From contig NC_135910.1 of NCBI RefSeq assembly GCF_964194155.1, positions 7,192,001 to 7,256,000 of the forward strand: DNA of 64,000 bases. Reading direction: 5' to 3'. Each line of letters starts with the position of its first letter. The first letter of the stretch is position 1. Below the pieces are notes generated by a model that was not told the DNA's origin, searched no databases, and worked only from the letters and a program-made list of their open reading frames with translations. Below, piece after piece: positions 1,511 through 61,050 of the stretch. The stretch is from Cetorhinus maximus. Its lineage: Eukaryota. Position numbers and translations under genes: made by a program.

Positions 1511-1727
1511 AGTAAAAACAAAGATAGCTGGAAAAACTCGGCAGGTCAGACAGCGTCTGCGGAGAGGAGCACAGTCAACATTTCGAGTCCGTCTGACTCT
1601 TCCACATGGACTCGAAACGTTAACTCCGTCTCCCTCTCCGCAGGCGATGTCAGAGCCTGCCGAGTTTGTCCAGCTGTTTTTGTTTTTGTTTCAGATTTCC
1701 AGCACCCGCAGTATTTTGCTTGTATCT
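1511..1727. mobile_element. Palindromic Penelope-derived short element, family A (others at 9189-9418, 32680-32876, 41601-41729, ~50020-50220, ~59105-59280; single arms at ~11350-11460, 13955-14050, 48297-48400)
   Basis: Two inverted copies of the same end sequence (GAAACGTTAACTC...CAGATGCTG.CAGACCTGCTGAGTTTT..CAG); 14-bp TSD cagcgatctgttgg / cagtgatctgttgg. Confidence 0.8.
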
Positions 1728-9019: not shown

Positions 9020-9905
9020 AGGTTAATTCTATTGAAAGGGGATTGGGGTACAGGAATGATGAAGACTTGCTACAGTTGCACAGGGCTCTGGTGAGACCAC
9101 ATCTGGAATACTGTGCGTAGTTTTGGTCTTCATGTTTTGAGGAAGGATATACCTGCATTGGGGGTACAGAGAAGGTTCACTGGATTGGCATTAAAAAAAG
9201 AAAATGCTAGAAAAAGCTCAGCAGGTCTGGCAGCATCTGTGGCGAGAGAAACAGAGTTAACGTTTCGAGTCCATATGACCCTTCTTCAAAGGCTCTGAAG
9301 TAGAGTCACACGGACTCGAAATGTTGGCTCCGTTTCTCTCTCCACAGATGCTGCCAGACCTGCTGAGTTTTCCCAGCATTTTCTGTTTTTGTTTTGGATG
9401 TCCAGTACCTGCTTTTATTTCATTGGATTGGTCCCTGGGATGAGTTGCCCTATGATGAAAGGCTGAGTAAATTGGACCTATAATCTCTGGAGTTTAGAAG
9501 AATGAGAGGTGATCTCATTGAGACAGGCAAGATTCTGAAGGGGCTGGACAGGGCGGACGCTGAGAGATTGTTTCCCGCTGGTCGGGGAATCTAAAACACG
9601 GGGGTCTCAGGATAAGGGGGCGATCATTTCGGACTGAGATGAGGAGAAATTTCTTCACTCAGAGGGGCTTGTGAGTCTTTGGAATTCTCGACCCCAGAGG
9701 GTAGGGGATGCTCCATTGCTGAACACATTTAAGGCTGGGACAGACAGGTTTTTGGTCTCTCAGGGAGTTAAGGGATATGGGGAGCGGGCAGGAAAATGGA
9801 GTTGAAGCCCAAGATCAGCCATGATCGTATTGAATAGTGGAGCGGACTTGATGGGCCAGTGGGTCTACTCCTGCTCCTATTCCTTGTGTTCTTGTGTTTT
9901 TGATG
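9020..9905 (+). mobile_element. CR1 LINE 3' fragment interrupted by a Penelope-derived hairpin element
   Basis: CR1 C-terminal sequence resumes after an insertion at ~9189-9418, flanked by a 13-bp TSD (ttcactggattgg / ttcattggattgg). Confidence 0.85.
9252..9332. ncRNA. Back-to-back degenerate hammerhead motifs (family A) on opposite strands
   Basis: Minus: TTGAAGA-AGGGTC-ATATG-GACTC-GAAACGTT-AACT. Plus: CTGAAGT-AGAGTC-ACACG-GACTC-GAAATGTT. Each has one substitution in the CUGANGA core. Confidence 0.55.
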
Positions 9906-11919
9906 ATATCTCAATGCTATAAACATTCTCACAGGACCACAGAAACATGCAGCATGGAAGGAGGCCATTCAGCCTATTGTGCCCATGCTGGAGCTTTGAA
10001 AGCGACACCTGTCAGTTCCAATCCCGCTACTCTCTCTCTCGATAGTCTAAGAATGCTTTCCCCTTGCAAGTAATTATCCAATTCCCATTTGAAAAATTAC
10101 TTCTGAATCTGCTTCGTCCACCTTTCCGGGCAGTGAATAGCAACAACTTACTAGACGCAGAAATCTTTGAGGCAGAAATTTGGGTTGCTGCAGTTTGCAG
10201 CAATAATCTCCTCAGAACAGAAGCCAAGCCTCAAGCTCTCATTGGTGCTTATGGTTTTAAGTGTTTGCAAGACAGGGTGTGTTGTGCTGGTCTGATTTGC
10301 ATAGATAAGAACGAGGGGGAGAGTTGGAACTTTAACTCCACTGTTGCCATGCGCCACTAACTGGTTGGACTTTAAATGTTGGGGTGCGGGGATTCGCAGG
10401 TTGAATCCAAGCCTCACAGTGGGAGTATTGGTCACAGGGAGTGTGTGACAGAAAGTCACACGCTGTCCATCCGCCATTTTCTGCTGTGCATTCTGTGCAA
10501 CCTGATCTGCTCCCCTGTGGAAACTATTTTTTACATTTTTGCAAGGATCTGGGATGTGGGCGTCGCTGGCTGGGTCAGCATTTATTGCCCATCCCAACTT
10601 GCCCATGAGAAGGTGGTGGTGAACCACCTTGAACCGCTGCAGCCCATGTGGTGCCTTGGTCCCTTTTGGTCCCTCTCATCCATCACCCCTGTGTTCACTG
10701 ACCGACCTCAGACACGGCCTCCAATCTAAGATTCTCATCCTTCTGTTAGAAGCTTAGCTGCCCCCTCCAGCCCTACAACCCTCTGGGATCCCTGCTCTCC
10801 TCCAATTCTAACCTCTTGTGTTCTAGAATTATTTTTTTTGTTATCTGTTCATGGGATGTGGGTGTTGCTGGCTGGGCCCAGCATTTATTGCCCACCCCTA
10901 ATTGCCCTTGAGAAGGTGGGGGTGAGCTGCCTTCTTGAACCGCTGCAGTCCCTGTGGTGTAGGTACACCCACAGTGCAGTTAGGGAGGGAGTTCCAGGAT
11001 TTTGACCCAGTGACAGTGAAGGAACGGCGATATATTTCCAAATCAGGATGGTGTGTGACTTGGAAGGGAACTTCCAGGTGTTGGTGTTCCCATCTATCTG
11101 CTGCCCTTGTCCTTCTAGGTGGTAGAGGTCGCAGGTTTGGAACTCCCTCCCTAAGCTCCTCTGCTCTCTCTCTCTCTCTCTCCTCCCTTCGACAAACCAT
11201 AAGCTCACTTATCTCATCGCTGCTTGGAGGACTTTGCTAAGAGCAAATTAATTATACTACAAAAGTGACTGTGATTCAAATGTACTTCAGTAGTTGCATG
11301 GGAATCACTTCCTAAGAGTCAGAGGTCATGGAAGGCACTGCAAAAATGCAATAGCTAAATACTGCAGATGCTGGTAATCTGAAATAAAACAGAAAATTCT
11401 GGAAATACTCAGCAGGTCTGGCAGTACCTGTGGAGAGAGAAAAACTGAGTGACCTTTCTGATGAAATTCAACGCAAGTTCGAGGAATGGCTCCTCATTTT
11501 TTGACTCGACACTTGACAGCCGTCCGGACTCAACAACTTTACATCATAACCCTGCCCCATTTTGTTCTGTGTATTTTTTTTTTTGCTGGTCTGTTTTTCT
11601 CTCTTTCTTAACTCTGCTACCTTATTTTAAGATGGCAGCCTCTCAGGATCCTGCCATTCACACCTCTATCTTTTGTTTCTGTACCTTCCCCATTACCACT
11701 CCCTCTGGCTTTTCACCATGAAACTTTTTGTCATTTAATCTCCCTTGTCCTCTACTCTCTCGCCAACCTTCCCTTTTGTTTTTTTTTCCCAACCTTCTCC
11801 ATTTCGCCTGCTTAAAAACTCTTACATTTCAAACTGCGTTTGCTGCCAATACATGCGCAGTCAATACCGCTTTATTCCATGACATTGCGAGTGACAGAGA
11901 TCAAAACTCTACTCATATG

Positions 11920-13931: not shown

Positions 13932-14396
13932 AGAGACGGTGCACATTTCAAACTTTTCTCAGTTCTGAAGGTCATTGACCCGAAACGTTAACCCAGTTTC
14001 TCTTTCCACAGACGCTGTCAGACCTGCTGAGCACTTTCAGCATTTGTTGCAATGTTTTCCTTTGGCACAGAGGGCGGACTCGTTCCCATTGCCCGATATA
14101 TAGTCTCGGGAGCCATGTCGATAACAAAGCGGTGCCAAGTGACGACACTAACCTTACCCAGGGCAGAAGGAATCGCTTTCTGCTGCTGGACTACTGGCAC
14201 AGGCTGGGTTTGAGTTCTCCTGAGGTGGGCAGCCAGTGACACATTGAGCAGTACATCTCACTACAAGAACCTCGACACTTGCATTAAAGCCGCTAGATCC
14301 ACACACATACACGCACATAGCAAACCAGTTAGCAAACATAGTCGGCTCAGTAAGCAACGATTGACACGCATTGCTAGTCGATGGTAAGGGACTTAC

Positions 14397-31823: not shown

Positions 31824-34800
31824 CTGCAAAGTGGAAAAGGAAAGTGAACCATGAGAATGATACTGATCATAGCGTGAGCTGGACACAAGGGCCAGACACA
31901 TCTCTGTTACGATATGCGACAGCACTAGCCATTAGCATCCCACCAGCACGCTTAGACAATATTGTAGCATGTGCATGAGATCCACAACATTCCTATCCCT
32001 CGAGCGTCCTTCGCAAAGCCCGTGAAGATATGCCACAAGCTACAGGTCACCTGGGTGATGCACGTCTATTGGACCCAACAGCTTAACTTGTGATTAAGGT
32101 AAAAAAAACCCAGAGCTCTCTTCAGGTAGGAGCATTGTTGAGTTGTAGCATCTTCTGATGATGAACGTCATGGGCTGTAGCGGGGATGATTGATAACCTC
32201 TATCTTGGCAATACTTTCACAAAGTCCTGCCAGTCTCTCCCGCTGATGCACTAATTAATTTACCAGCCCGCCTAAGATTTTAAAATTCTCGTGCTCGTTT
32301 GCAAAACCTTCCATGGTTTTTCCCCTTCCTATATTTATGACCTCGACAACCCTCCGAGATCTCTGTGCACCTCCCATTCGGGCCCCGTGTGCTTCCCGAT
32401 TTTAATTGCTCCAGCACTGCCAACCGCACCTTCGCCCGCTCCGACCCTAAGTTCTGGAATTCACTCCCTAATCCTCTCTGCCTCTCGCTCCTTTAAGTTG
32501 TTGCTTAAAACCTACCTCCTCAGCCAAGCTTTTGGTGACTTCCCTAAAATCTCCCAGCCCTCATACGTTGTTTTGATAGCTCCTTTTGAGATGTTTTACC
32601 ACGTCAAAGGTCTTATATAAATGCAAGTTGTTTACCCATTCCGTCACCTCAAGTATTCTGCATGTTAAGCTTTTCCATTAAGATAAAAGCAAAAAACTGC
32701 GGACGCTGGAAATCTGAAACAAAAACAAAAATACCTGGAAAAACTCAGCAGGTCTGACAGCATCTGTGAAGAGAAAGACAGAGTTAACGTTTCGAGACTC
32801 TCAAACTCTAACTCTGTTTCTCTCTGCACAGATGCTGTCAGACCTGCTGAGTTTTCCCAGCACTTTTTGTTTTTGTTTAAGCTTTTCCATTCCTGCTTCA
32901 CATGGTATTAAAAATCATTTTTAACAAGGCAATTTCAAAGCTGTCAGGCAGCTGAGCTTTGAAATTCGTTGAGTGCAATGGGACAGGAGGTTGTGCAGGT
33001 CCATTGGTTGTACAAGCTGCCCAAATACATAGGAACATAGGACTTAGGAGCGGGAGTAGTCCATTCGGCCCTTCAAGCCTGCTTTCCCATTCAATAAGAT
33101 CATGGCTGATCTGGTTGTGGTTTCAACTCCACTTCACCATCCTCCCCACCGTCCCCCCACCCCCATTACCACCCCCTCCCTCCCCCTGCCTAACCCTTGA
33201 CTCCCATGTCTATCAAAAACCTAACTCAGCCTTGAATAAAGTCAATGACCCAGCCTTCACTGCTCTCTGGGGAAGAGAATTCCACAGACTAACAGCCCAT
33301 TGAGAGAAAAATATTCTCCTCATCTCCGTCTCAAATGGTAGATCTCTTATTCTTAAACTGTGTCCCCTGGTTCTAGTCTCTCCCACAAGTGCAAACATCC
33401 TCTGGGTATCCACCCAATCAAATCCCCTCAGGATCTTCTATATTTCAATAAGGTCACCTCTCATTCTTCTAGACTCCAATGGGTATAGGCCCAACCTGTT
33501 CAGCTTTTCTTCATAAGATAAGCTCCTCATCCCAGGAATTTGTTGAGTAACTGCTCGAGCTACTCACAACCTCCACCTAAACCCTCTCTCCAGTAAGGAT
33601 CACCTTGTTATCTTTCCCATGGCTTTTTTCTCTAGAACGGAGAAGGCCAATGATAACGCTCTTTAAAATTATGAACAATTTCCACAGGGTAGACATGGAG
33701 AAGACAATTCCACTTATGGGCAAGTGCAGAACTAGGGCTATAAAACATAAAATGGTCACTAATAAGTTCGGTAAAGAATTCAGGAGAAACTTCTTTACCA
33801 AGAGAGTAATTAGAAAGTTGAACCTGGTGCTACATGGAGTAATCGAGGCGACAAGCAGAATGTATTTAAGGCAAAACTCGGTAGATATACAAGGGAGAAA
33901 GGTTTAGCAGGATATGGTGATGGGGTTAGATGAAGTAGGATGGGAGGAGGCTTGTGTGGAGCCAGTCAGACCAGTTGGGCTGTTTCAGTGCTGTAAATGC
34001 TATGTGATATGACCACGTGTAGATTGCATGTTGCCTATCAAATCGATGATACCGTGCCTAACCATTCCTGCACATGGTGCTGACTGAATTGTTCAACACA
34101 GCTCCCATCAGATTCTGTTTTTGCACTGCTTCCCCTTTATCCAGGAGGTCAGAAACTTCCCTCGTGGCCAAGCACCTGGGGCGATTCAGGACTTCATGGG
34201 GCCTGGCTTTGAACCCACTGACGTGAAGCGGATTGGCCCCCGTCAGTGGGAGCTAATTTTGAGTGCATGAGGTTGAGCTGAATGGGGGTCCCTGGATTTG
34301 GTGAGCTGAGGGCGTGTTGCTTGCTGGACATTGGGTTTGACCGCTTAGACCAGCTAACCAAAACAATCACAACATCTTGAGGATGTGCGTTGCTGATAGA
34401 GCAACCATTTTACAGACAAGTATAACAGAAAGAATTATGGTGCAGTGGGAGAGCATTCAACCCTTTGTGTCCATGCTGTAATAGCCAAAGGAATTTAGCT
34501 TTAAGGCTACAAAATCCTGAGGTGCAGAGGCAGTTAACTTGGGTCTGTCCAACAGGGTGGAGTCTGTTAACCCACCATGTTTATTTTTGACAATTCTATT
34601 TGTGAAGTTTAACTGTTTCTCACTCATAAGCTTGTGGGTGAAGACAACATGGCTCACCACAGTAAACAGGTACAATAAAGAGAACATTGCTTCTCCAACA
34701 TATCCCAACACTCAAACCCATCTACTATCAAAACACCCAACCCATAACGTACCAACATATTCATTGCCAAGCTCTCATCAAACTACCCGAACTCACTAAC

Positions 34801-40278: not shown

Positions 40279-42162
40279 GAGCTCACGTGAGGAGTCTTTT
40301 CACGTTGTACTGCAGCTAGCACATGGTACTGGCTAACCAGGAAACTCTCCTGCTCTTACCACCAATCGGAATATCGGAAGGATTTACAGACGGACAATCA
40401 ACCTGCTTGGCCACACCACAAATGCACCCTCCATGGCCATCAAGTCCTGGGCTGGGTTTCGAACCCAGAGCTTTGGGCTCAGACATAGGGACACTACCCA
40501 CTGTGCCACAAGATCTCCTATGGCGGGTGCTGACTCTGCCTTCAAGAGGAAGTTGCACCATTTCCTGACTGGTAGAGAATACATCATATTGACCATTCAT
40601 GCCTGCGTTACCTCTAGACTCAACTACTCCAACACACTCCTACATTCTACCTTCTGGGAACTAGAGGTCATCCAAAACTCTGCTGTCTGTGTCTCTCCAT
40701 CAAGTCCCGTTCCCCTATCATCTCAGCGCTTGCTGACCTACAATGGCTTCTGGTCTTGATTTTAAAGTTCTCATCTTTGCTTTCAAATCCCTCCGTGGCC
40801 TCGCCCCTCCCTATCTCTGTAATCTCCTCCAACTCCACAACCCTCCGAGATATCTGCACTCCTCTAATTCTGGCCTCTTTGTGTATCCCCAATTTTAATC
40901 TCTCTCCCACTGGTGGCCGTGCCTTCAATCGCCTGGGTCCCAGGCTCTGGAATAGCCTCCCAATGCATCCCCCGCCTCTCTATCTCACTCCCCTCCTCAA
41001 AACCTACCTCCTTGGCCAAGCTTTTGACTTTACTATCTCCTTCTGTGGCTCGCTGTCATATTTTGTTTTGTAATGCTCCTGTGAAGTGCCTTGGAGGGCT
41101 AAAGGGAGATCGGAAACTTTTAACCATGGTTCCCCAGCCACTGCGTCCCCCTCAGGCAGGCTCGATGGATCAGCTGGTTTTGTTCAGCTCCTCACTTTGG
41201 TAAGTTTGTATGTTGGCGACTGGTCTTAAGGAAATCTTAAAGAGATGAGCAAGGGGGCAGCTCTAACAGCCTTTCGTCTTATCAAGGCTAAGCCAAGTGG
41301 TCAGGAAGGCTGTTATAACAATCTGCTTATAGGGATAAGGCAAGGGGTCAAGAGGATGGAGTCACAGCAATGACTGGTCTTAAGGATATGAAAACAGAGA
41401 GCCTAAATTTTCCGGGCCTAGCGGGCGGGATGGATAATTTGACAGACCAATAACAGGTCCGCTGACTTCAGGTGAGAATGTCAGGTCCATCGGTTGGATA
41501 GGACTGGAAAATCCCCACCCATAGTCAGCAGTGACCGGGTCAGCAAGGAGAACCCAGATTGTTTTCAAACTCAGCTTTAGGGCGAGGATTATTCTCCTAT
41601 AACAAAAACAAAAATACCTGGAAAAACTCAGCAGGTCTGACAGCATCTGCGGAGAGGAATCTGCTGAGTTTTTCCAGGTATTTTTGTTTCTGTTTCAGAT
41701 TTCCAGCAGTATTTTGCTTTTATCTTAGTGATTATTCTCCTATGTTGGCCCGAGGGAGGTTGGGTGTTTTTTTTCCAATCTTTGGTGTGCCGTCCCCAGG
41801 CAGGACTGTGTCGATTTTAACACCTCTCGTCCCTGTTTTCAAATCTCTCCATGGCCTCACCCCCATCTATATCTGTAACCTCCTCCTGCCCTATGGCCCG
41901 GCAAGATACCTGCGCTCCTTACCCTTACCCCGCTGTGGGCCTTCAGCTGGTGAGGTCCTAATTGGAATTTCCTCCCTAAAACCCCTCTGCCTCTCTTATC
42001 CACCCTGGACCATCATTAAAGCCTTACCTATTTGACCAAGCTTTTGTTCACCTGTCCTTACACCTGCTGATGTGTCTCAGTGTCAGACTTTGCCTGACAA
42101 ACGCTCGAGTGAAGCACCTTGGGACACTTTACTACATTGAAGTTGCTATTTAACTACACCTT

Positions 42163-43321: not shown

Positions 43322-45255
43322 ATTGTTGTGGTGGGAATCCAACTCTTGACAGGGTCAATATGTCATAGGGTAATTGAGCCATAGGAACACAGAAGGAGGC
43401 CTTTCGGCCCACCAGGTCCATGCTAGCTCTGCGTAGAACACTCTAGTCAGTCCCATTCAGAAGTGGCCCAATGAGAGGGCTATGTATCCACATAGGCTGC
43501 CTGTGTATAAAGGCCCATTTATTAGCCTAAGGGCATGGAGACACTTTTCCTAATTTATGTTTGTCAAATGCCTGAATCTAAAACCAAACCTAAACCCTTT
43601 CCTGTATCTGAAGGTGTTTCTCCTCATTTGAAGGTAGGTATGACATTTCCCCCTCTTGTTCCCCAGAAGGAAAAAACAGTTTGGACCAGTACTCTTATTT
43701 CCCAGTTTTTACTGGTGTTCCATTTTAAGGTATACAAGACCAGTTCGGACCAGTACTCTATCTCCCAGTTTTTACTGTTTTTCCCCTCTTGTTCTGGAGC
43801 CCTGCAGACCCGTTCCTGGGACCTTGCACAATAACGTCCCAAACCGGATACTCGGATGTTCCTGAGAGAGGAATGGTGGTGCCTTTCCCTCCAAGTCTCT
43901 CCACGAGGATTTAACTATTGCAGGTTTGGAACACAGTCGCAACTCTGACACTCCATCCTAAGTGAGACTGGTTTTATAGACCAACAGCTCAAGAATTAGT
44001 TCTTGAGGTGGCTGTCTTGTTCATGCTACAGATTAACATCATCATCTTGTGGTTTGGCTCTTAATTGTAGAACCATCAGATCCAGAGGTCAGTTTGACTC
44101 ATCCTCCGCCAGGTACCATGTCCTAAGAGGGCGTTGGTGACCATGGACTTCCATTGGATTGGTCCATGATTATGCTTGGCAAAGTACTGCAGTGGTTTGC
44201 TCTTGCTCTCTGCAGTATGGCTGACCAGGAAACTTTGCCTCTCTTACTGCCTGCCATCGGGTGTATTGGAAGGATTTACAGGCTGATAACCAACCAGTTT
44301 GGCCACATGATGAACACAACTTCCGTGGCCATCAAGTCCTGAAGTGAGACTTGAACCCAGAGCTTCTGGCCCAGAGATAGGGATGCTACCCACTGTGCCA
44401 CAAAGCCTCCTGACCATAACCCTTTACCCTACCCAAAACCAACTCAGTTTTCAGTTGGCACCAGTGGCCTCTTTGTCCAAAGTTTGCTTTTGCCAGCTCA
44501 TAACTAATAACTAACATGACAAATAACTCATAACTAGAGTATGCTGAAAAAAAGAGACATGCTATTGAGCTTTTCATCTTGCACTCAGCAGGACAGCTGT
44601 GCAAGATAAACCAATAGTGAAGGGGCCAACAACTTATACTGCATGGCAAGAGTGTGCTGATTGGTTGGCAAGTGGATTCTGATTGGTAGAGGCGTTGCCA
44701 TGGAGAATGCAGCAGAGGACAGTTAATTGCGAAGCTTTTGTTCCAAATTCAAACCAGGCAGGTTGACTCTAATTGGTCAAGACATTGCCCTGGGGAATGA
44801 ACCAGGGATGGCTGTCCTCCAAGTTTTGGTTAGTTGGAAAAAGTCTAATGCATGGACATGCTCCTTCTGACCCATAACTAATGTATCATTTGGAATTATT
44901 ACCAACCCAACTATGTACATTGTGGAAATTTCCTGGTGGGAGACACTCAAATTCAGACGGAAAGAAAGGATACTTCTACAGGTGTATTCCTTGGATGCAA
45001 CAACACTTGCATTTATATAGCATCTTTTCAAGGTCCCCAAGCCACTTGACAGGAGCGTTATCAGACAATGTCTCACATTGAGTCACATAAGGAGCTATGA
45101 GGACAGGTGGCCAAAATCTTGGTCCAAGAGATTAATGACGAATATTAGAATTGATAGAGACATTCAGAGGCTGACCCTGCTTTGGGTTAGTTAAGATTGG
45201 CCTTTAGTCATCAACTTGCCCATCCAGGGCTGACAGGCTAATATAGTGGACTCAC

Positions 45256-45531
45256 TGTCAGGAGATGTACAAGGTCCTTGTTGGCTTCAAATGCCGGTGT
45301 GCTGCCCTGGATTTGGATCAGCTCCGAGATGCGGCTGAAAAGTTGCTGAAGCTTGTTCAGGTTTATCTTCTTATCTTCAATATAGTCCGGCAGCGCCTCA
45401 TTCAAGAAGACGAGGTCCTTCAGGTGGACCCCTAGGATAGGGATCTTAAACCCTGTACATTCACTGAAGACGCGGCGATAGTTGCTATAGTTACTGCAGG
45501 AGGAGAGAAGCTCTGTCATCTCGTTCAATGT
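45256..45531 (-). CDS. RASGRP4: RasGRP exon (276 bp), CDC25 domain: [11 protein letters not shown]...[11 protein letters not shown]...[11 protein letters not shown]
   Basis: acgcag acceptor, ACA|GTGAGT donor; inside ORF 45238-45729. Confidence 0.95.
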
Positions 45532-48500
45532 CTGCGTTGGAAAGAAGGAGCAGGTTATCAGGGGAAGTGACCAGTCGCCCACAGAGTTAAGAGCTGGCAT
45601 TAGAATAACAATCACCCATCCATTCATAACAAAACACGTATTCCAATTTGCTTTCTCTCTTCCCTGAAGGCAGAGGCACTTGACATGGTAAACGTCCATG
45701 GTAGCTAGTGGTCTTGTATAGGTGATCATATATGAACCTAGTAAGGATATATATGTTGCTTAGGAACATCAGGACAGATGTGGGTTCAGCTTCTCAAACC
45801 TGCCCCACTATTCACTGAGATTGTTACTGATTTGTATCTCATCTCCATCCACTTACATCGACTCCACTCTTTTAGAACCTCGTCCAATATAAGTCTAGTG
45901 GCTCCAGGTTTATGAACATATGAACATGTGAATTAGGAGCATGAGTAGGCCATTCAGCCCCTCAAGCCTGCTCTGCCATTCAGTAAGACCATGACTGACC
46001 TAATTGTAATCTCAACTCCACATTCCGCCTGCCCCCGATGACCTTTGACTCCCTTGTTAGTCATGAATTTATCTACCCCTGCCTTAAAAATATTCATTGA
46101 CCCCGCCTCCACCGCTTTCTGGGACAGGGCGTTCCAAAGACTCACGACCCTCTGAGGGATAAATATTCTTCTCATCTCCATGTTAAATGGGAGACCCCTT
46201 ATTTTTAAGCTATTTGAAAGGATTAATTCAGCAATTCCGCCACTTTCTGTGGGAGACTTTCACACTCCTACCACCCATGGCCTTGTTTCCTAACTTCTCT
46301 TCAGGGTAACCTGGCTCTGGTTTTAATGTTACATCCCCTTGGGCCTTGACTTGCCCACCTGCAGAAAGGGTTTCTCTCTCTATAGCTTATCAATTTAATC
46401 AAAATCCTAAAAACCTCCATCAAATCACCCCTTGTCCTTCTACTTGATGTAATCTCTCCACATGATCAAACCTTTGACGCACTGTTAACATTCTGGCACT
46501 TTGATGAGGCTATTTTTAAAAAAAAATTCATTGGATGTAGGCATCGCTGGCTAGGCCAGCATTTATTGCCCATGTTCAGAGGGCATTGAGTCAACCACAT
46601 TGCTGTGGGTCTGGAATCACATGTAGGCCAGGCACATAGATAAGGACGATAGATTTTCCTTCTCTAAAGAACAGCAGTGAACCAGATGGGTTTTTACAAC
46701 AATCGACAATGGTTTCGTGGTCATCATTAGACTTTCAATTCCAGATTCCCATTCCGTGGTGGGATTTGAACCTGGGTCCCCAGAGGATTACCCTGGGTCT
46801 GTGGGTTACTAGTCCAGTGACAATACCGCTACACCATCGCCTCCTCAGTAATAATTTAATGATATGGGGTTCATATCTGGCATCAAGCAGCATTCCCTTC
46901 ACGTCCCAGAGTAGGAAGGTCAATGGGGAACAACGAGGAGCAGGAATGCTAATTGATTTTCCCAGTGACACTGAGGCCAAAGTACCTTCACTGTTGGCCT
47001 GACACCAGCTAACTCAACCTAGGCCAGAGGCCTGACTTGTGATTTGTATGGCTTTCAATAACACACCATGTTGTGACTAAATGCAGTGTGGCATCAGAGA
47101 AACAAATCTCCCCCATTTCCACATTTGGGGAAAAAAAATCAAACTAAACAAAGTCTTCGGGCTGAATTTTCCTGGTACTCTGAGGACAGGTTTGGAGGGC
47201 CAGGTTAGCGGGAGTGCTGGTGCCAGGAAAGTAGCGGGAACACTGTCAGGATGGTTTGCCAATACTGTCCCACCTCTGGCGGACTCTCCCGGGAGCTGCC
47301 AGGGAAATAGCCAAACAAGGCCCAAATCATCCCACATCAATGGAAGTTTCCAGGTGTCGGACAGGGCCCTGGGCTGAGTCCGGAGCTTGTAAACTACATG
47401 AGAGACCCTCCAGACAACAGATCAAAGAGTCAGTGGAGACTCTTCCCAAATAACCAGTGATGGAGCTGCGAGGCTGAACATTCCTTTAGGTGGTTTGGGT
47501 GGGTTTACAGCCGCAACACCTCTTGGGCCTTTTTGTTTTAAACTGTGTTCAGCGTACATTTGAGATCATCTCCATTTTGAGGCTCCCTTGTGGTCACCTA
47601 CCTCCCTCAGCAGCACCCACCTTTCCTCCAACGCTGGGGCCCCCCTCATTGGGCTCTCCACATCGCCATCCCGCCCTCCATCCTTAATTGGACAGGGAAA
47701 TGTGGAGACAGCCGATTAGGAGGCCGACTCATGTGAGCGCGCACTGAGGCCACGACCCACATGGGGTCCCCATGCCCAAGGGAAAAAAATCAGGCGTTCG
47801 TGCCATTGACCAAACATTTCCAAGCCAAGAGGTCACAAGGGTGACCTACACCCGCCACCCCCCTACACCAATAGCACTCCGGGATTGAAGTGTGGTGATC
47901 CACACCTGCTACTGCCCTCAGCTGAGATCTCGGCCTGACAGGGCGGCTATGAACTGAAGCCTTGTCAGTGCATGGCACAGTGCTTTGCCACACAGCAGGC
48001 ACTATGGCACTGCTGCGCTTTGGCAAGACTGGGAAATACTTTTGGCAAACCCTACTGATCTAACGCTGCATCCGGACAAGGACATGGATCAGGTGGAGGG
48101 GCCACTCCAGCAGAATAATTATGCTCTTCACTGAAACAAGTGGGTTTTTTTCTTTACTGAGGAGAGGGTGCTTGAGTCAAGAGTGTCGTCATTGCCCGAC
48201 TTAAGACTTTGGCATTGCTTGAAGGATTCACTGTACAGGATCTCTGTGCATCCAAACTCCTCTAATTAATGACGCCAGTGGGCAAATGACTCTAGTCTGA
48301 AATAAAAACGGAAAGTGCCGGAAATACTCAGCAGGTCATCCAGCAACTGTGATGAGAACCGGGGTTAATGTTCCAGCTTGTGATGGCCTTCATCAGACTC
48401 TGATCTGAACCCTGCTAAATACTTGTGCAACAATTTGCTGTCCATTCCCCACTCAAATCTATCTCAGCTTTGGACAATCGTAGGATCCTACAGCGTGGAG

Positions 48501-50610
48501 GGAGGCCATTCGGCCCATCCTGACTGTGGCAGCTCTCTGAAAGGCACCGCAATTCGTCCCACTCCTGCTCTTCCCCCTGTAGCCCTGCTTAGGCTTCCCC
48601 TTCAAGCATTAATCCAGTTCGCTTCTCAAAGTTACGATTGAACCTGCTTCCATTTTCATCTCAGCCACTGGATTCCAGGTCACAGTGACTTTCGGAGTAA
48701 AAAGAATTTCTCCTCATCTCCAACCCCCTGGCTTTTCTGTCAAAGGTGTCCTCCAGGTACTGACTCTTGCGCCAGGTGGAACTAGTTTCTCCCTATCTAA
48801 TCTACTGAGAGTTCTTGAAGGGTTTCAAAATGATATTGTGAAAGGGTGAAGCACCTAGAAAGGAGGAACAATTTCAGCGCTGCCAACCTCAGCGGGTAAT
48901 TATATTGCATTTAGCCACGGCTTTTACAGAGCTCGGTGTGACCCATTCTGCAAGATCTTCACTGTCATGGTCTCATAGCAAATCCCACAAGGGGCCTGTA
49001 AACCGCCGTGGTACAAATACTGATAGAATTCCAACATCAAATCCAAAATCTCAATTGCTACATTGACACGCCCGTGCACACACGCACACTAGTCCACAGT
49101 AACGTACTCAGGGATAGAGAGGTTTGTTTAACAGTAACAAATCCCCGTCCTGCGTTAGAAAGTCGTGTCATTAATGGTTATTAATTAATTATAGTGCGAA
49201 TCTTCATCAGATCTCTCAATTGGTCCATTATTTCTCCCCTGGTTGGATTTTCGATGCCCGATGGGGTCGGCACCGGAGGGGGCAGAGTTGACATTTCCTG
49301 CCGTTGCCCAGTATGCCATCTTTCTGGCGCCGTTCTGAGCAGGAGCCATTTTGGAAATGCAACAAGGGCCCTACTAAGGCTCCTCTCCTGCGCTGATGGG
49401 GCAGTTTCCAGTTGGCAGTGGGAGTGTCCAAAACGCAGCCAGTGAGAGGCGGTGGACTCCCAGAAGCAGACTGCCTGGTGCGGGGGAGAGGGGGAGTGAA
49501 GGGGGGCAACACTCCAGTGGACGCTTCAAACTCCCCCTCCCTCCTCCCAGCCCCACAGCCGCCATACCACGGTAACCACAGCTGGGTGACTTAGACGGCT
49601 CTGTGGGGGGAATTCCCCTTCCCAGAGGACAGCGTAGCAGCTGTGCCCTCCTATTTTTATATTTTGAAAAAAAATATTCAGAGGGCGCCTCAAGATGGAG
49701 GCGCCTGCGCTCTCTCCTGCACTCACCAACAGCGGGGTGGCTTATATGTCCTTGCTGAAGGGCCTCCTATTGACCCTCCAGCCTCAGGAGACCGCCCACT
49801 ATCCTTAATTGGATGGCGAACGCGCCACTTGGGCCATCAATGGGCTCGACATTGAAAAGTTGGGTAGAGGATCTTTGTTTGTGGTGCAACATAGGACTCA
49901 GAAGTTCTCCTGTCACTGGGTTCCCAACTTCAGAAGGAAAATCCAGCCCCTCTCTCTCCACCATCAGACCCCTCTGCTCATCGGCCTAGTTGACAAACGC
50001 CATTCCCCAAATACCCTAAATCAAAATATTACAGATGCCGGGAAGTCCGAAATTCAATCAGAAAATGTTGGAAATACTCAGCAGGTCAGGCAGCACCTGT
50101 GGAGGGAGAGGCAGTGTTAAAGTTTCAGGTCGCTATTGAAAGGACAGCGTTAACTCGGTTTCCCTCCCCACCGTTTCTGGTCTGAGCTGCTGAGTGTTTC
50201 CAGAATTTTCTGTCCTTATTCGCCAAATCCCATGTTGCCTGCGGGTACAAAGAGGCTGCTGGGAGAACAGCCCGGAGTTAAATAGCTCTAAGGTCCAACA
50301 GATGGAAAAAACAGTTCGGACCAGTACTCTTATTTCCCAGTTTTTACTGGTGTTCCGTTTTAACGTATACAAGACCAGTTGGAGGTGTCAGCTGTGGCTC
50401 AGTTCATAGCACCCTCGCCTTTGAATCAGAAGGTTGTGGGTTCATGTCCCACTCCCGGAAACCAAGAACTGTGAATGTACTCGAAAGAGTTACATGCGAT
50501 CTGTTGATAACTCGAAAGAGTTACAAGACCAGTTTGGACCAGTACTCTTATTTCCCAATTTTCACTGTCTTTTCGTTCTGGGTGGGAGATACATATACAA
50601 GGAGACCAAC

Positions 50611-54244: not shown

Positions 54245-54651
54245 GAAAGAGAAAAGCCAATAACAGAAAGAGAACATTCTGGAAAATTCCTCTCCAAGCC
54301 CCTCAGGTGATTTGAAAGCAGTCCAGGAGATCAGTCAGTGCCAGGCTGGGGTTTTGACACCCAATGGGCTGCAAGACAAAAGGGAAGCCTGAAGCAGACA
54401 CAAGTGTTATAGGGTTTGACAAAGCTCGTGTAGGAGGTGAGGTGATCAGCTGCGACTCTGATGCCGTGAATTCTTAATTGATTTGAATCAGCCTGCTACT
54501 CCACAGAGATTAAAACTAATTATCTTTGATGAGATCATGGGGGAGCATTAATCCAGCTCCCAATGTCCTTAGCAAGGATGCCTAGCAACCAACTTGCCTC
54601 CACATGAGGCACGACTGATTTCCTCGGGGAGGCTTCCTCATTGCGCCCTAC

Positions 54652-54825
54652 CTGAGCAACGTGTATGAACTTGGTGAAGACTTCGGCCCTCTGGGCTGGA
54701 CTGGGCCTATTGAGGATCATCAGCTGGACCCACTGGGAGATCCCGTTGACCAGGGACACGGAACGCTCCAGGGCTGGGTTCTCTCTCACACACCCGCTGA
54801 CCATGTAACTCATGTAGTCTAGGTA
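54652..54825 (-). CDS. RASGRP4: RasGRP exon (174 bp), CDC25 domain: [58 protein letters not shown]
   Basis: ttccag acceptor after a pyrimidine tract, CAG|GTAGGG donor; GISQWVQLM motif. Confidence 0.95.
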
Positions 54826-55493
54826 CTGGAAGAAAGGAGGAAAAAAAAATAAAATGGTATTTCTATAGCGCCATTCAAAGCCCAAAATGCTTTGCAACCA
54901 ATGAAATGCTTTTGGGATGCATTGTGGGAAATGCCGCAGCCAATGTGCATCAAGCAAGATCCCATTAACAACAATGAGATAAAGCCCAAATAATCTGCTT
55001 TTTAGCAATGTTGGTTGAGGGATAAATATTGGCCAGGACACCAGGGAAAACTCCCCACTGATCTTCGTCCAACAGCAGCCGTGAGATCTTTTACCTCCAC
55101 CTGAGGTGACAGTCAAGGCCTTGGTTTAAGGGCCTCCCCCGACAGGTGGCACCGCTGGCAGTGCAGCACTCTCACGGTTCTGCACCAGGAGTCTCAGCCT
55201 AGATTTTGAGGTCTTGTGCCCGCCATTTTCCAACTCACTAAAAGCACGCGGTGTAGCCACGCAGTGGCTGGGCTGTGTGGCAAGGGTGCCACGTGCCTGA
55301 GGCAAATAACTTAGCACGGCAGGCTGTGACAGATCCCGTAGCGTTTACAGAGTTACCACGAGGACGGGGTTTTGCTGTCAAAGTCCCCCAGACAGACAGT
55401 GGGCTCCGAGAGTCCCCAGTCAATGACAGATTTCCAGCCCCTACGAGTACCCAGCATCAGCCTTCATCGTCCACGGGTTAGGGAACTGCTCAC

Positions 55494-56084: not shown

Positions 56085-58960
56085 GGCATTTATTTTAATG
56101 CAAGGAGTCTTGTGAGTAAGGCAGATGAGTTTGAGGGTGTTGATTAACACATGGGGATATGATATCATTGTTAGCACAGAGACATGGTTGAGGGAGGGGC
56201 AGGACCGGCAGCTCAGTATTCCGAGGTATAGAATCTTCATGCAAGACGGGATGCGGGGGGGTGGGGTGTGTGCAGGGGTGTGGTGTAAAAGCAGAGGTGA
56301 TGTCGCAATATTGATCAAGAAGTCAATTACTGCAATAAGGAGGGATGGTATCGTAGGAGGTTCCTCAAATGAGGCTATATGGGTAGAACTTAAATCAAAA
56401 AGGGGGCAATCACATTGCGGGGAGTGTACTATAGAACCTAAAACAGCCAGGGAGAGATAGAATGGCAGATATATAGGCAAATCTCAGAGAAGCGTAAAAA
56501 CAACAGGTTAATAATAGCAGGGGATTTCAACTTCCCCAATATTAACTGGGATAGGCAAAGTGTGAAAGGTTAAGAGGGGGACGAGTTCTTAAAATGTATC
56601 CAGGAGAGCTTTTTAAGCCAGCAAATAGAAAGTTCTACAAGAGAGGGGGCGGTGCTGGACCTAGTTTTAGGGAATGAAACCGGGCAAGTGGTAGAAGTGT
56701 CAGTGGGGGAGCATTTCGGTGATAGTGACCATAACTCAGTAAGATTTAAGGTAGTTGTGGAAAAGGGAAAAGATGGAATAAAGGTTCTGAATTGGGGGGA
56801 AGGCCGATTTTAATCTGATAAGACAGGGTCTGGCCAAAGTGGACTGGGAGCAGCTACTTGTAGGAAAATCTTTATCAGAGCACTGGGATTCTTTCCAAAA
56901 GGAAATAGTGAGAGTTCAGGGCCAACATGTTCCTGTAAAGGCAAAGGGCAGGATCAACAAGTCCAGAGAACCCTGGATGTCAAGGAATGTGCAGGATTGG
57001 ATAAGGAAATAAAGGGAAGCTTATGGTAGATACCGAGGGTTCAAAATAGCGGAAGCCCTAGAGGAGTATAGAAAGTGCGAGGGATTACTTAAAAAAAGAA
57101 ATTAGGAGAGTGAAGAGGGGGGGGCATGAAAAAACACTGGCGGGTAAAATAAAGGAAAATCCAAAGGCATTTTATAAGTATATTAGGGGCAAGAGGATAA
57201 CCAGGGAAAGAGTAGGGCCCATTAGAAACCAAAGTGGCAATCTGTGTGAGGAGCCGGAGGACGTCGGTGAGGTTTTAAATGAGTACTTTGCATCTGTATT
57301 CACTCTAGAGAATGACGATGTAGGTATAGGAAATCAGGGAGCTGGGCTGTGATATGCTTCAACAAATTAGCATTAAGAGGGAGGAGATATTAGCAGTTTT
57401 AGCAGGTTTAAAAAGGGATAATTCGCCAGGCCCAGATGGGATGTATCCCAGTCTACTGTGGGAGGCAAGGGAGGAGATTGCAGGGGCCCTGACATTAATT
57501 TTCAAATCCTCCCTGGCCACAGGAGAGGTGCCAGAGGACTGGAGGACAGCTAATGTGGTACCATTATTCAAGAAGGGTGGTAGGGAAAAACCAGGGAACT
57601 ATAGGCCAGTGAGTCTAACATCAGTGGTAGCGAAACTTTTGGAAAAAATTCTGAGGGACAGGATTAATCTCCACTTGGAGTGGCAAGGATTAATCAAGGA
57701 TAGTCAGCATGGCTTTGTCAGGAGATCATGTCTAACAAATTTGACTGAATTTTTCGAGGAGGTGACTAGGTGTGTAGATGAGGGTAGTGCAGTTGATGTA
57801 GTCGACATAGACTTCAGTGAAGATTTTGACAAGGTCTCGCATGGGAGACTGGTCAAGAAGGTAAGAGCCCATGGGATCCAGGGCAATTTAGCAAATAGGA
57901 TCCAAAATTGGCAGGAGGCAGGAGGCAGAGGGCGATGGTCGAAGGTTGTTTTTGTGACTGGAAGCCTGTGTCCAGTGGTGTACCACAAGATTTGGTGCTG
58001 TGTCCCTTGCTGTTTGTAGTGTACATTAATGATCTAGACATGAACGTAGGAGGTATGATCAGTAAGTTCACAGATGACACAAAAATTGTTAGTGTGGTAA
58101 ATAGTGAGGAGGAAAGCCTTAGACTACAGGATGATATAGATGGGCTGGTCAGATGGGCAGAACAGTGGCAAATGGAATTTAATCCTGAGAAGTGTGAGGT
58201 GATGCATTTTGGGAGGACTAACAAGGCAGGGGAGTACACGATGAATGGTAGGATCTTAGGAAGTACAGAGGGTCAGAGGGACCTTGGTGTGCATGTCCAT
58301 AGATCCCTGAAGGCAACAGGACAGGTAGATAAGGTGGTTAAGAAGGCATATTAGATACTTGCCTTTATTATTTGAAGCACTGAATACAAGAGCGGGAAGG
58401 TTATGTTGGAGCTGCATAAAATGCTAGTTAGGCCACAGCTGGAGTACTGTGTGCAGTTCTGGTCGCCACACTATAGGAAGGATGTGATTGCACTGGAGGG
58501 GGTGCAGAGGAGATTCACCAGGATGTTGCCTGGGCTGGAGCGTTTCAGCTATGAAGAGAGACTAGATAGGCTGGGGCTGTTTTCCTTAGAGCAGAGAAGG
58601 CTGAGGGGGGACCTGATAGAGGTGTACAAAACTATGAGGGGCAGAGATAGGGTAGATAGGAAAAAACTTTTCCCCTTAGCAGAGGGGTCAATAACCAGGG
58701 GGCATAGATTTAAGGTAAGGGGCAGGAGGTTTAGAGGGGATATGAGGAAATTTTTGGAACTCACTGCCTGAAAGGGTGTTAGAGGCTGGAACGCTGACAA
58801 CATTTAAGAAGTATTTAGATGAGCACTTGAAATGCCATAGCATACAGGGCTACGGACCAAGTGCTGGAAAATGGGATTAGAATAGATAGGGGCTTGATGG
58901 CCGGCACGGACACGATGGGCCGAAGGGCCTGTTTCTGTGCTGTATAACTCTATGACTCCA
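56085..58960 (+). mobile_element. CR1-clade LINE, near-complete but frameshifted ORF2 (APE endonuclease + RT) and 3' tail
   Basis: Endonuclease motifs (NARS, ETWL, GDFN, SDHN), then RT-region motifs (PGPDG, WRTANVVPLFKKG, NYRPVSLTS, QHGF, SGVPQ, FTDD) and C-terminal RPQLEYCVQFW...RRLRGDLIEVYK, split over several ORFs. Confidence 0.95.
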
Positions 58961-59746
58961 TGGTTTAAAGGTGACTTATGCAGTTTTATTCTCCTTCAAG
59001 TATTTATCCAATTCCCTTTTCAAAGCTACTATTGAATCTGCTTCCGTTGCCCTTTCAGGCAGCCATCCCAGATCACACCAGCTCGCTGCGTCAAAAAATC
59101 TGCAACAGCAACATACTGCGGATGCTGGAAATCTGAAACAACGACAGAAAATGCTGGAAACACTCAGCAAGTCAGGCAGGCGTTCCGGCGAAAGGTCAGA
59201 GACCTGAAACCTTAGCTCTGCTTTTCTGTCCACACATGCTGCCTGATCGGCTGAGTGTTTCCGACACTTAATTTTTATCCTCGTGTCAGCCCAGCTTCTT
59301 CTGTCAATTATCTCATATTCGACCTCCTCGGCTTCCCATACAGCAGAAATACTTTCTCCATAGTTACACAATCAAACCCCTTCACAAGCACCTCCAGCAA
59401 ACCCCCCCCTTACCCTTCACTGCTCAAGGGAGAGTATTAAACATGTCAGAAGATTTAGAGGGCACTAATACATTTTATTAAGTATATAAAAGGCTTTATA
59501 TTTTGGGATCTGATTAAAGTCCAGGCTCTGGGTTCAAACCGATGAAATCCTCTCTTCCTACTGGTGGGTAGCGCTCTATGCGAAATGAACAAAAGTCAAC
59601 CAAATTCCTCGTATCCGTTTGCAATCCAACAACTAGCACTAAGCTGGAATTCCATTCAGATTGACATGGGATGGCCGGTGTAGGAAATGGAAAGGTGGTA
59701 CTCATTTCATGATTGTGATGCATTACATTACTTGCGGCCATGCTGA

Positions 59747-61050
59747 ATGTAGAGGGAGCTTTACTCTGTATCTAACCCAGTGCTGTACCTGTCCTGGGAG
59801 TGTTTGATGGGGACAGTGTAGAGGGAGCTTTACTCTGTATCTAACCCAGTGCTGTACCTGTCCTGGGAGTGTTTGATGGGGACAGTGTAGAGGGAACTTT
59901 ACTCTGTATCTAACCCCGTGCTGTACCTGCCCTGGGAGTGTTTGATGGGGACGGTGTAGATGGAGCTTTACTCTGTATCTAACCCCGTGCTGTACCTGTC
60001 CTGGGAGCGTTTGATGGGCATGGTGTGGAGGGAGCTTTACTCTGTATCTAACCCCGTGCTGTACCTGTCCTGGGAGCGTTTGATAAGGACAGTGTAGAGG
60101 GAGCTTTACTTTGTATCTGACCCTGTGCTGTACCTGTCCTGGGGGTGTTTGATGAGGACAGTGTAGAGGGAGCTTTACTCTGTATCTAATCCCATGCTGT
60201 ACCTGTCCTGTGAGTGTTTGATGGGGACAGTGTAGAGGGAGCTTTACTTTGTATCTGACCCTGTGCTGTACCTGTCCTGGGAGTGTTTGATGGGGACAGT
60301 GTAGAGGGAGCTTTACTCTGTATCTAACCCCATGCTGTACCTGCCCTGAGAGTGTTTGATGGAGACAGTGTAGGGAATGATTTACTCTGTATCTAACCCC
60401 GTGCTATACCTGTCCTGGGAATGTTGGATGGGGACAGTGTAGAGGGAGCTTTACTCTGTATCTAACCTTGTGCTGTACTTGTCCTGGGAGTGTTTGATGG
60501 GGACAGTGTAAAGGGAGCTTTACTCTGTATCTAACGCTGCGCTGTACGTGTCCTGGGAGTGTTTGATGGGGACAGTGTAGAGGGAGCTTTACTCTGTATC
60601 TAACCCTGTGCTGTACCTGCCCTGGGAGTGTTTGATAGGGACAGTGTAAAGGGAGCTTTACTCTGTATCTAATCCCATGCTGTACCTGTCCTGGGAGTGT
60701 TTGATGGGGACAGTGTAGAGGGAGCTTTACTTTGTATCTGACCCTGTGCTGTACCTGCCCTGGGAGTGTTTGATGGGGACAGTGTAAAAGGAGCTTTACT
60801 CTGTATCTAACCTTGTGCTGTACTTGTCCTGGGAGTGTTTGATGGGGACAGTGTAGAGGGAGCTTTACTCTGTATCTAACCCCATGCTGTACCTGTCCTG
60901 GGAATGTTGGATGGGGACAGTGGAGAGGGAGCTTTACTCTGTATCTAACCTTGTGCTGTACTTGTCCTGGGAGTGTTTGATGGAGACAGTGTAGGGGGAG
61001 CTTTACTCTGTATCTAATCTATGTTGCACCCGTCCTATGATATTTGATAA
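59747..61050 (+). repeat. 69-bp tandem satellite, about 19 units
   Basis: Unit GTGTAGAGGGAGCTTTACTCTGTATCTAACCCCGTGCTGTACCTGTCCTGGGAGTGTTTGATGGGGACA, period 69. Confidence 0.97.

Follow-up and report, generated by a model that had tools for sequence, protein, structure and literature searches.

A short insertion in Cetorhinus maximus read as two head-to-head hammerhead ends of a Penelope-like element

The insertion and its genomic setting

The window analyzed here, a 64-kb stretch of Cetorhinus maximus contig NC_135910.1 (forward strand, 7,192,001–7,256,000), holds a 230-bp insertion at positions 9189–9418 between two direct repeats of 13 bp that are identical at 12 of 13 positions (Table 1). 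A sequence-only reading of the same DNA had described this 13-bp target duplication correctly. It had also delimited the element as 9176–9431, a span that contains a real insertion but counts both duplications. The insertion interrupts a LINE (9049–9588), which, like that reading, we take to be CR1-like. The reading frame of the host element breaks off at 9181 and picks up at 9439, and its joined flanks align across the insertion junction in 21 alignments to other copies.

Two inverted arms of approximately 99 bp (9193–9291 and 9293–9390) lie within the insertion. Its RNA folds at −146.5 kcal/mol (z −15.3), and none of 200 shuffled sequences folded equally well. The palindrome of about 230 bp reported earlier is thus a 230-bp insertion with inverted arms but not a symmetric one, as the last 24–28 nt or so of the right arm (to 9418) are unpaired. 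Positions in the arms are numbered from C3 of the hammerhead. The untailed arm differs from the family majority in 7 of 100 alignment columns, the tailed arm has a 10-nt deletion within its tail, and the two disagree with each other at positions 9, 73, and 96. Almost certainly, the insertion consists of two mutated, 5'-truncated hammerhead ends (pseudo-LTRs) of a Penelope-like element (PLE), which stand head to head in a single insertion within the LINE.

Table 1. Positions in the window of the insertion, its parts, and other copies of the PLE family.
Feature	Position	Strand	Basis or remark
Left target-site duplication	9176–9188	+	13 bp, host LINE sequence
Right target-site duplication	9419–9431	+	Direct repeat of 9176–9188
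Host LINE, C-terminal part of ORF2, left flank	9049–9175	+	Alignment to copies, reading frame
Host LINE, right flank	9432–9588	+	Alignment to copies, reading frame
Untailed arm, PLE end from −2 to about +97	9192–9291	−	
Tailed arm, PLE end from −3 to the family tail end at +137	9292–9418	+	
One-sided PLE tail	9395–9418	+	Family length about 37 nt, between 3' end points at about +100 and +137
Minimal type I hammerhead, C3U lesion	9255–9291	−	Stem II GGGTC/GACTC, GAAACGUU intact; sequence, alignment
Minimal type I hammerhead, A9U and C15.2U lesions	9292–9329	+	Stem II GAGTC/GACTC; sequence, alignment
Longer, decayed member of the PLE family	2410–2926	−	GIY-YIG remnant (2693–2926), 3' UTR, first part of a hammerhead that is largely deleted
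Second hairpin stub	1514–1727	.	One tailed and one untailed arm
Third hairpin stub	32685–32885	.	Arms differ at subfamily-diagnostic sites
Single stub, second lineage	13955–14045	+	Stem II with 3-nt loop, core partly deleted
Asymmetric hairpin stub, second lineage	59104–59262	.	AGGTC/GACCT on plus arm; tailed minus arm cut short
Heavily decayed single stub	48296–48400	−	

The family is represented elsewhere in the window. A candidate relative noted at 2420–2930 proved to be a decayed, GIY-YIG-bearing copy of the same PLE family, with 76–82% DNA identity to the longer copy L121 described below and with 54% amino acid identity in a protein comparison (E 2e-23). Three relics had been cited for variant stem II sequences. 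Those at 13960 and 59182 do carry a 3-nt loop and pairs of the AGGTC/GACC(T/C) type and belong to a related second lineage, but the one at 48367–48400 is too decayed to type. Further stubs of the family lie at 11350–11460, 41601–41720, and 50018–50213, two of them hairpins.

RasGEF exons of a RasGRP-family gene occupy the minus strand at 45241–45759 and 54538–55125 (best PDB match RasGRP1, E 2e-36). A possible last exon of this gene lies near 8–478, a segment for which the Atlas returned no match, and we infer that the insertion sits in one of the gene's introns. A fragmented LINE ORF2 with a reverse transcriptase (RT) match, related to the host LINE of the insertion, spans 57330–58771. A long tandem repeat with a unit of about 24 codons and open frames on the minus strand extends from 59723 to 61018.

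Hammerhead motifs in this copy and across the family

The two hammerhead motifs lie on opposite strands and carry different core lesions, as the sequence-only reading had recognized. Their predicted cut sites fall between 9259 and 9258 for the minus-strand motif and after 9325 for the plus-strand motif, in which the stem I 3' strand has also changed from AA to GG. Neither core is intact, with A9U and C15.2U in one arm and C3U in the other. Because both cores are broken, this copy is predicted to be inert, and we predict from the lesions that neither of its hammerheads is active. The opposite orientation of the motifs further means that a transcript, whichever strand it comes from, holds one hammerhead together with its complement, the two paired into a long duplex.

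The assignment of the motifs to the minimal, PLE-type hammerhead withstood comparison with the family, which has the CUGANGA and GAAA core and a palindromic stem III. The CUGAAGA core was present in 31 of 33 arms of the subfamily (positions 6–7 checked). The commonest cores among 251 motifs fit CUGANGA/GAAA, in a set chosen by a core-based pattern and kept to motifs with at least four of five stem II pairs, so that its pairing percentages are biased. The variant core CUGCCGA occurred in 5 of the 251. Four 45-nt motifs folded as monomers had z-scores of −0.1 to −1.7 and no hammerhead fold, a result that tells nothing about a motif of the dimer type. Rfam returned no match at gathering score in the 64-kb window and, at E ≤ 10, only weak non-hammerhead matches far below their gathering scores, which we take to mean that its models do not fit the minimal hammerhead form. 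A relaxed scan of the window found no other convincing hammerhead, and the second family (family B) mentioned in the earlier reading was not located.

Stem II covaries between two lineages. Where the 3' strand is GACCT, 16 of 19 scorable loci have AGGTC opposite it (30 examined, 11 unscorable); where it is GACTC, none of 50 do (70 examined, 20 unscorable). As far as these loci tell, the compensatory change is one lineage split and not many events. A third 3' strand, GACCC, mostly retains GAGTC (17 of 21 scorable), a mismatch as expected under decay. No shuffle out of 500 equaled the observed stem II pair counts, a result that is illustrative only, coming from 11 hand-picked sequences. The pairing of stem I did not hold up in this subfamily, in which 28 of 33 arms have a C·A mismatch beside the cut site and only 2 are paired. 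A sister subfamily has stem I paired in 57 of 60 arms and UU at core positions 6–7 in 28 of 60. In sister subfamilies (L112, L117, L130, and others), core position 6 is often U or C while stem I is paired.

The source element and the ends of its short copies

Exact matches to a 36-nt subfamily motif located 3' of stem II number 1304 in the genome searched (4.0 Gb), and those to the 34-nt tail number 7477; the reversed controls gave 0 in both cases. Loci were sampled through these exact-match anchors, mostly from the start of one contig (C1). In the motif-anchored sample (the first 70 of the 1304 matches listed), 14 loci extended at least 200 nt upstream, and several of these ran through the 3' UTR into a GIY-YIG frame whose Pfam match (E 8e-4) is below the cut-off. 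A protein search with this frame yielded 90,230 first-look candidates, of which 150 were scored. L121 has a 782-amino acid frame with an RT, a CX4CxxC linker, and a GIY-YIG domain, and carries the motif about 390 nt downstream; its RT (RVT_1, E 8.5e-6) and GIY-YIG scores are both under the curated Pfam cut-offs. Both L053 and L121 have a CxxC directly before the YIG motif and two histidines downstream, a pattern that matches the definition of endonuclease-bearing (EN+) PLEs. No PDB relative of the PLE frame was matched.

The same end sequence also precedes the coding region. Eight of 30 loci containing the N-terminus of the frame have the motif about 460 nt upstream in direct orientation, and L375 and L376 carry it on both sides of the ORF, as expected of a pseudo-LTR. 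The 3379-bp unit L376 has a copy of the motif at each end and is flanked by a 16-bp target duplication. Thus, an autonomous PLE ending in this sequence, as the earlier reading had envisaged, does exist. L121, L375, and L376 belong to sister subfamilies of that of the insertion, whose own long copies (L048, L050, L053, and others) contain frameshifts. In full-length copies, a 30-codon upstream frame precedes the long frame, which starts about 170 nt past C3. The short frame (L350, L347, L353) begins just past the hammerhead, crosses the tail, and terminates, in phase with the long frame, a short distance ahead of it. The upstream part of L054 holds a decayed frame resembling histone H2B inside the PLE copy, between the endonuclease and the element end. 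The CX4CxxC of L121 conforms to the CX2-5CxxC linker feature of Neptune, which is shared with Nematis; by this linker motif, the source is an abundant RT and GIY-YIG (EN+) PLE with a Neptune/Nematis-type linker.

The 3' ends of the short copies are bimodal. Of 70 loci, 33 end near +100 and 34, the tailed ones, near +137; one ends in between and two are shorter. An inverted match was present at 34 of the 70, with a partner arm reaching +85 or beyond in 29. In these 29 hairpins, a tailed arm was paired with an untailed one in 27 (27 of 27 resolved), and the two unresolved cases leave none of the same type. The tail-anchored sample (the first 90 of 7477 matches) agrees: 41 arms had an inverted partner, none of them tailed (0/41). 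With 14 long copies set aside, target duplications were scored for 19 of 34 hairpins and 9 of 22 single stubs, versus 0 of 34 and 1 of 22 in shifted controls, and ranged from 9 to 17 bp among the scored hairpins.

Paired arms usually appear to derive from a common template or subfamily. Among 100 hairpins, they disagreed at the subfamily-diagnostic positions 59, 60, and 96 in 15–16% of cases, compared to 41–53% if independent and a background of 7%, and their mean identity was 0.875 versus 0.839 for shuffled pairs (88 of the 100 hairpins scored). At position 9, paired arms disagreed in 31% of 48, and there are clear exceptions to the common origin (L063 and window 32685–32885). The arms also differ in completeness. 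Tailed arms were cut short in 12 of 18 cases versus 0 of 11 untailed arms (p = 4e-4). The excess was weak in the tail-anchored set (15 versus 6, p = 0.08), whose design omits arms ending within the tail. It is consistent with a single RNA primed twice, its inner cDNA being displaced, and counts against fold-back on an untailed cDNA, though it is not proof.

At the other boundary, the 5' ends pile up at the edge of the hammerhead. Of 131 tail-anchored arms, 56 end in −8 to +8, including 20 at −4 or −3, while 10 end in −25 to −9 and 17 inside stem II (+9 to +25); end positions taken from BLAST may be off by a few bases, and the palindrome carries a few of them past the junction. No end fell around the cut site at +31 (0 of 131 in +26 to +36). 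The stop rate in −8 to +8 was 56 of 98 versus 10 of 42 just upstream (p = 4e-4). Random 5' truncation was considered and rejected.

Upstream sequence is available for 96 arms. In 17 of them, a TATAWA box begins 31 nt ahead of A(−4), and in 4 more it begins within 2 nt of that place. Canonical TATA is missing from the other 75, many of which show a TTATAT-type variant at a similar place; this variant is also present in sister subfamilies. Two of eight full-length copies begin at −5 and at about −4/−1, and the other six have upstream tandem sequence. The extra G that capping predicts at −5 did not show up (484 G vs. 444 A). From the pile-up of arm ends, the TATA-like box, and the full-length starts, we infer that the element mRNA starts at about −4; the short arms are likely run-off copies of uncut RNA. 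Short re-copied pieces (the element's first 6–12 nt) lie just upstream of −4 in L233, L264, L265, L274, and L280, which would suit renewed priming by the RT on reaching the end of its template. Short re-copied 5' segments occur in many of 60 loci ending at −4.

Origin of the inverted arms and comparison with known systems

The identity of the arms, the one-sided tail, the target duplication, the autonomous partner, and the distribution of ends are direct observations. They make it very probable that the insertion is a double stub of a PLE, likely generated in one event by two priming reactions on uncut element RNA. The endonuclease would nick both target strands about 13 bp apart, and each target 3' end would prime reverse transcription at one of two internal starts (about +100 and +137). 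Where priming uses the signal copy that lies close to the mRNA 5' end, each cDNA would run off the RNA end (about −4) after 105–140 nt. The two cDNA ends would then be joined via short homology or filler, and the hammerhead would be copied as uncleaved cargo. We regard this run-off scheme as reasonably likely.

A fuller version can be offered more tentatively. The hammerhead may form the first 35 nt of the mRNA, with the RT starts 100–140 nt inside. One RNA would be twin-primed, the outer, tailed cDNA would displace the inner one and often stop early, and both would run off the capped end. The hammerhead may then serve as a signal, structural or protein-binding, having ceased to act as a nuclease. 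If so, the thousands of stubs would constitute a genomic map of the transcription start and RT starts, and successful subfamilies would have lost the stem I pair or core A6 while keeping stem II.

The inverted arm could instead have been produced by self-priming, in which the cDNA of the same stubs folds back, possibly on an antisense template. Such a model was proposed for rotifer Penelope elements in the accessible part of that report (PMC3846280), and it would accommodate the 4-nt palindrome AGCT at the commonest junction and the predominance of one subfamily in paired arms (discordance 0.15–0.16 vs. 0.41–0.53 expected). However, the tailed arm is the shortened one in 12 of 18 cases, and fold-back on an untailed cDNA cannot supply a tail. 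Some hairpins mix two subfamilies, and many junctions hold 1–40 nt of filler. We consider self-priming improbable, although the DNA data are compatible with an antisense-template version.

Slightly less probable still is a 5' boundary of the same stubs set by a splice acceptor at helix I or by release of the RT at a folded or protein-bound hammerhead. In both lineages, the −4 boundary does resemble a splice acceptor (a polypyrimidine tract with AG at −4/−3), a D. virilis intron ends at helix I according to the available text of PMC4209133, and 17 arms end inside stem II. Yet the stubs retain the AG, and no common upstream exon was seen by eye in the flanks of 60 copies ending at −4. An RT stalled at a hairpin is expected to stop on its 3' side; the ends peak on the 5' side of the hammerhead and drop sharply beyond −8.

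Paired ribozymes in a hairpin element that moves as a unit, akin to a non-autonomous retrozyme with two hammerheads as a functional pair, are not supported and are very improbable. The hairpin is strong, stem II covaries between lineages, and minimal hammerheads work as dimers, according to the sections available of PMC4209133 and PMC6765202. On the other hand, 40 of 41 hairpins have a junction of their own, the duplex formed by either transcript opposes a hammerhead to its complement, neither core is intact, and most of the subfamily has a mismatched stem I; retrozymes, moreover, are head-to-tail tandem repeats, and this insertion is head to head. A DNA-transposon MITE with terminal inverted repeats is scarcely credible, for although the insertion is short, non-coding, palindromic, target-duplicating, and one of thousands, its ends differ by a tail, the duplications vary in length, junctions are diverse, 49 of 90 tailed arms have no detected inverted partner, and the arm forms the end of an RT and GIY-YIG element.

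The locus is of value as a record of PLE integration. Tailed arms pair strictly with untailed ones, no arm ends where cleavage would occur, and ends accumulate at the 5' edge of the hammerhead, all of which lends in vivo support to two internal starts and an uncut template. There is also a warning for repeat annotation, as PLE stubs resemble MITEs. The layout itself is already described in print, in the accessible portions of PMC8557442, PMC3846280, and PMC4209133, and this copy is one dead insertion among thousands. A literature search, mostly of open-access scope, found nothing on shark PLE hairpin stubs, RNA-start run-off, or PLE twin priming; Repbase, Dfam, or supplements may already list the family.

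Insertion units of EN+ PLEs provide the closest structural parallel. They include inverted, 5'-truncated copies and a one-sided tail of 30–40 bp (PMC8557442, PMC3846280, PMC2377424, as far as accessible), and the available text of PMC8557442 also gives the linker motif. Shared with the insertion are the head-to-head inverted pLTR copies, the tail at one end only, the variable target duplication, the short palindrome at the junction, and a partner with an RT and C-terminal GIY-YIG. Unlike the inverted copies beside longer bodies in the portions of these reports available, the arms here are only 100–140 nt and have no coding body between them. Promoters are described in accessible excerpts as TATA plus initiator in pLTRs, alongside palindromic junctions and the self-priming model (PMC3846280), and as a TATA-less internal promoter in D. 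virilis Penelope (PMC2377424).

The motifs themselves are like the minimal hammerheads with low dimer activity that PMC4209133, in its accessible text, places in pLTRs of fish Neptune, Poseidon, and Xena elements. Both have CUGANGA, an extra base before stem II, G10.1-C11.1, a palindromic 15.2–16.2, no loop III, and a short helix I. Those sections name no shark and describe opposite-strand pairs about 100–700 bp apart, whereas the pair here is directly adjacent, with a stem II of 5 bp, the stem I C·A mismatch, and sister subfamilies in which core position 6 is often U or C. Non-LTR retrozymes, as portrayed in the part available of their description (bioRxiv 10.64898/2026.07.22.740005), are likewise non-coding, hammerhead-bearing, related to PLE pLTRs, and reported in one chondrichthyan, but they are head-to-tail tandem repeats with intact ribozymes and not single, decayed, head-to-head insertions.

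For the integration reaction, the comparison is with the Anolis Poseidon element PAc (Frangieh 2024, PMC11167929). PAc differs in that its ORF starts in stem II and has no linker zinc finger, as opposed to a frame about 170 nt past C3 here, and the accessible text does not report run-off at the natural RNA 5' end. The same text describes two internal RT starts that bound the tail, target DNA cut and extended on both strands, and uncut RNA as the dominant substrate. The two systems are thus alike in the internal starts on either side of the tail and in an insertion for which hammerhead cleavage is not needed.
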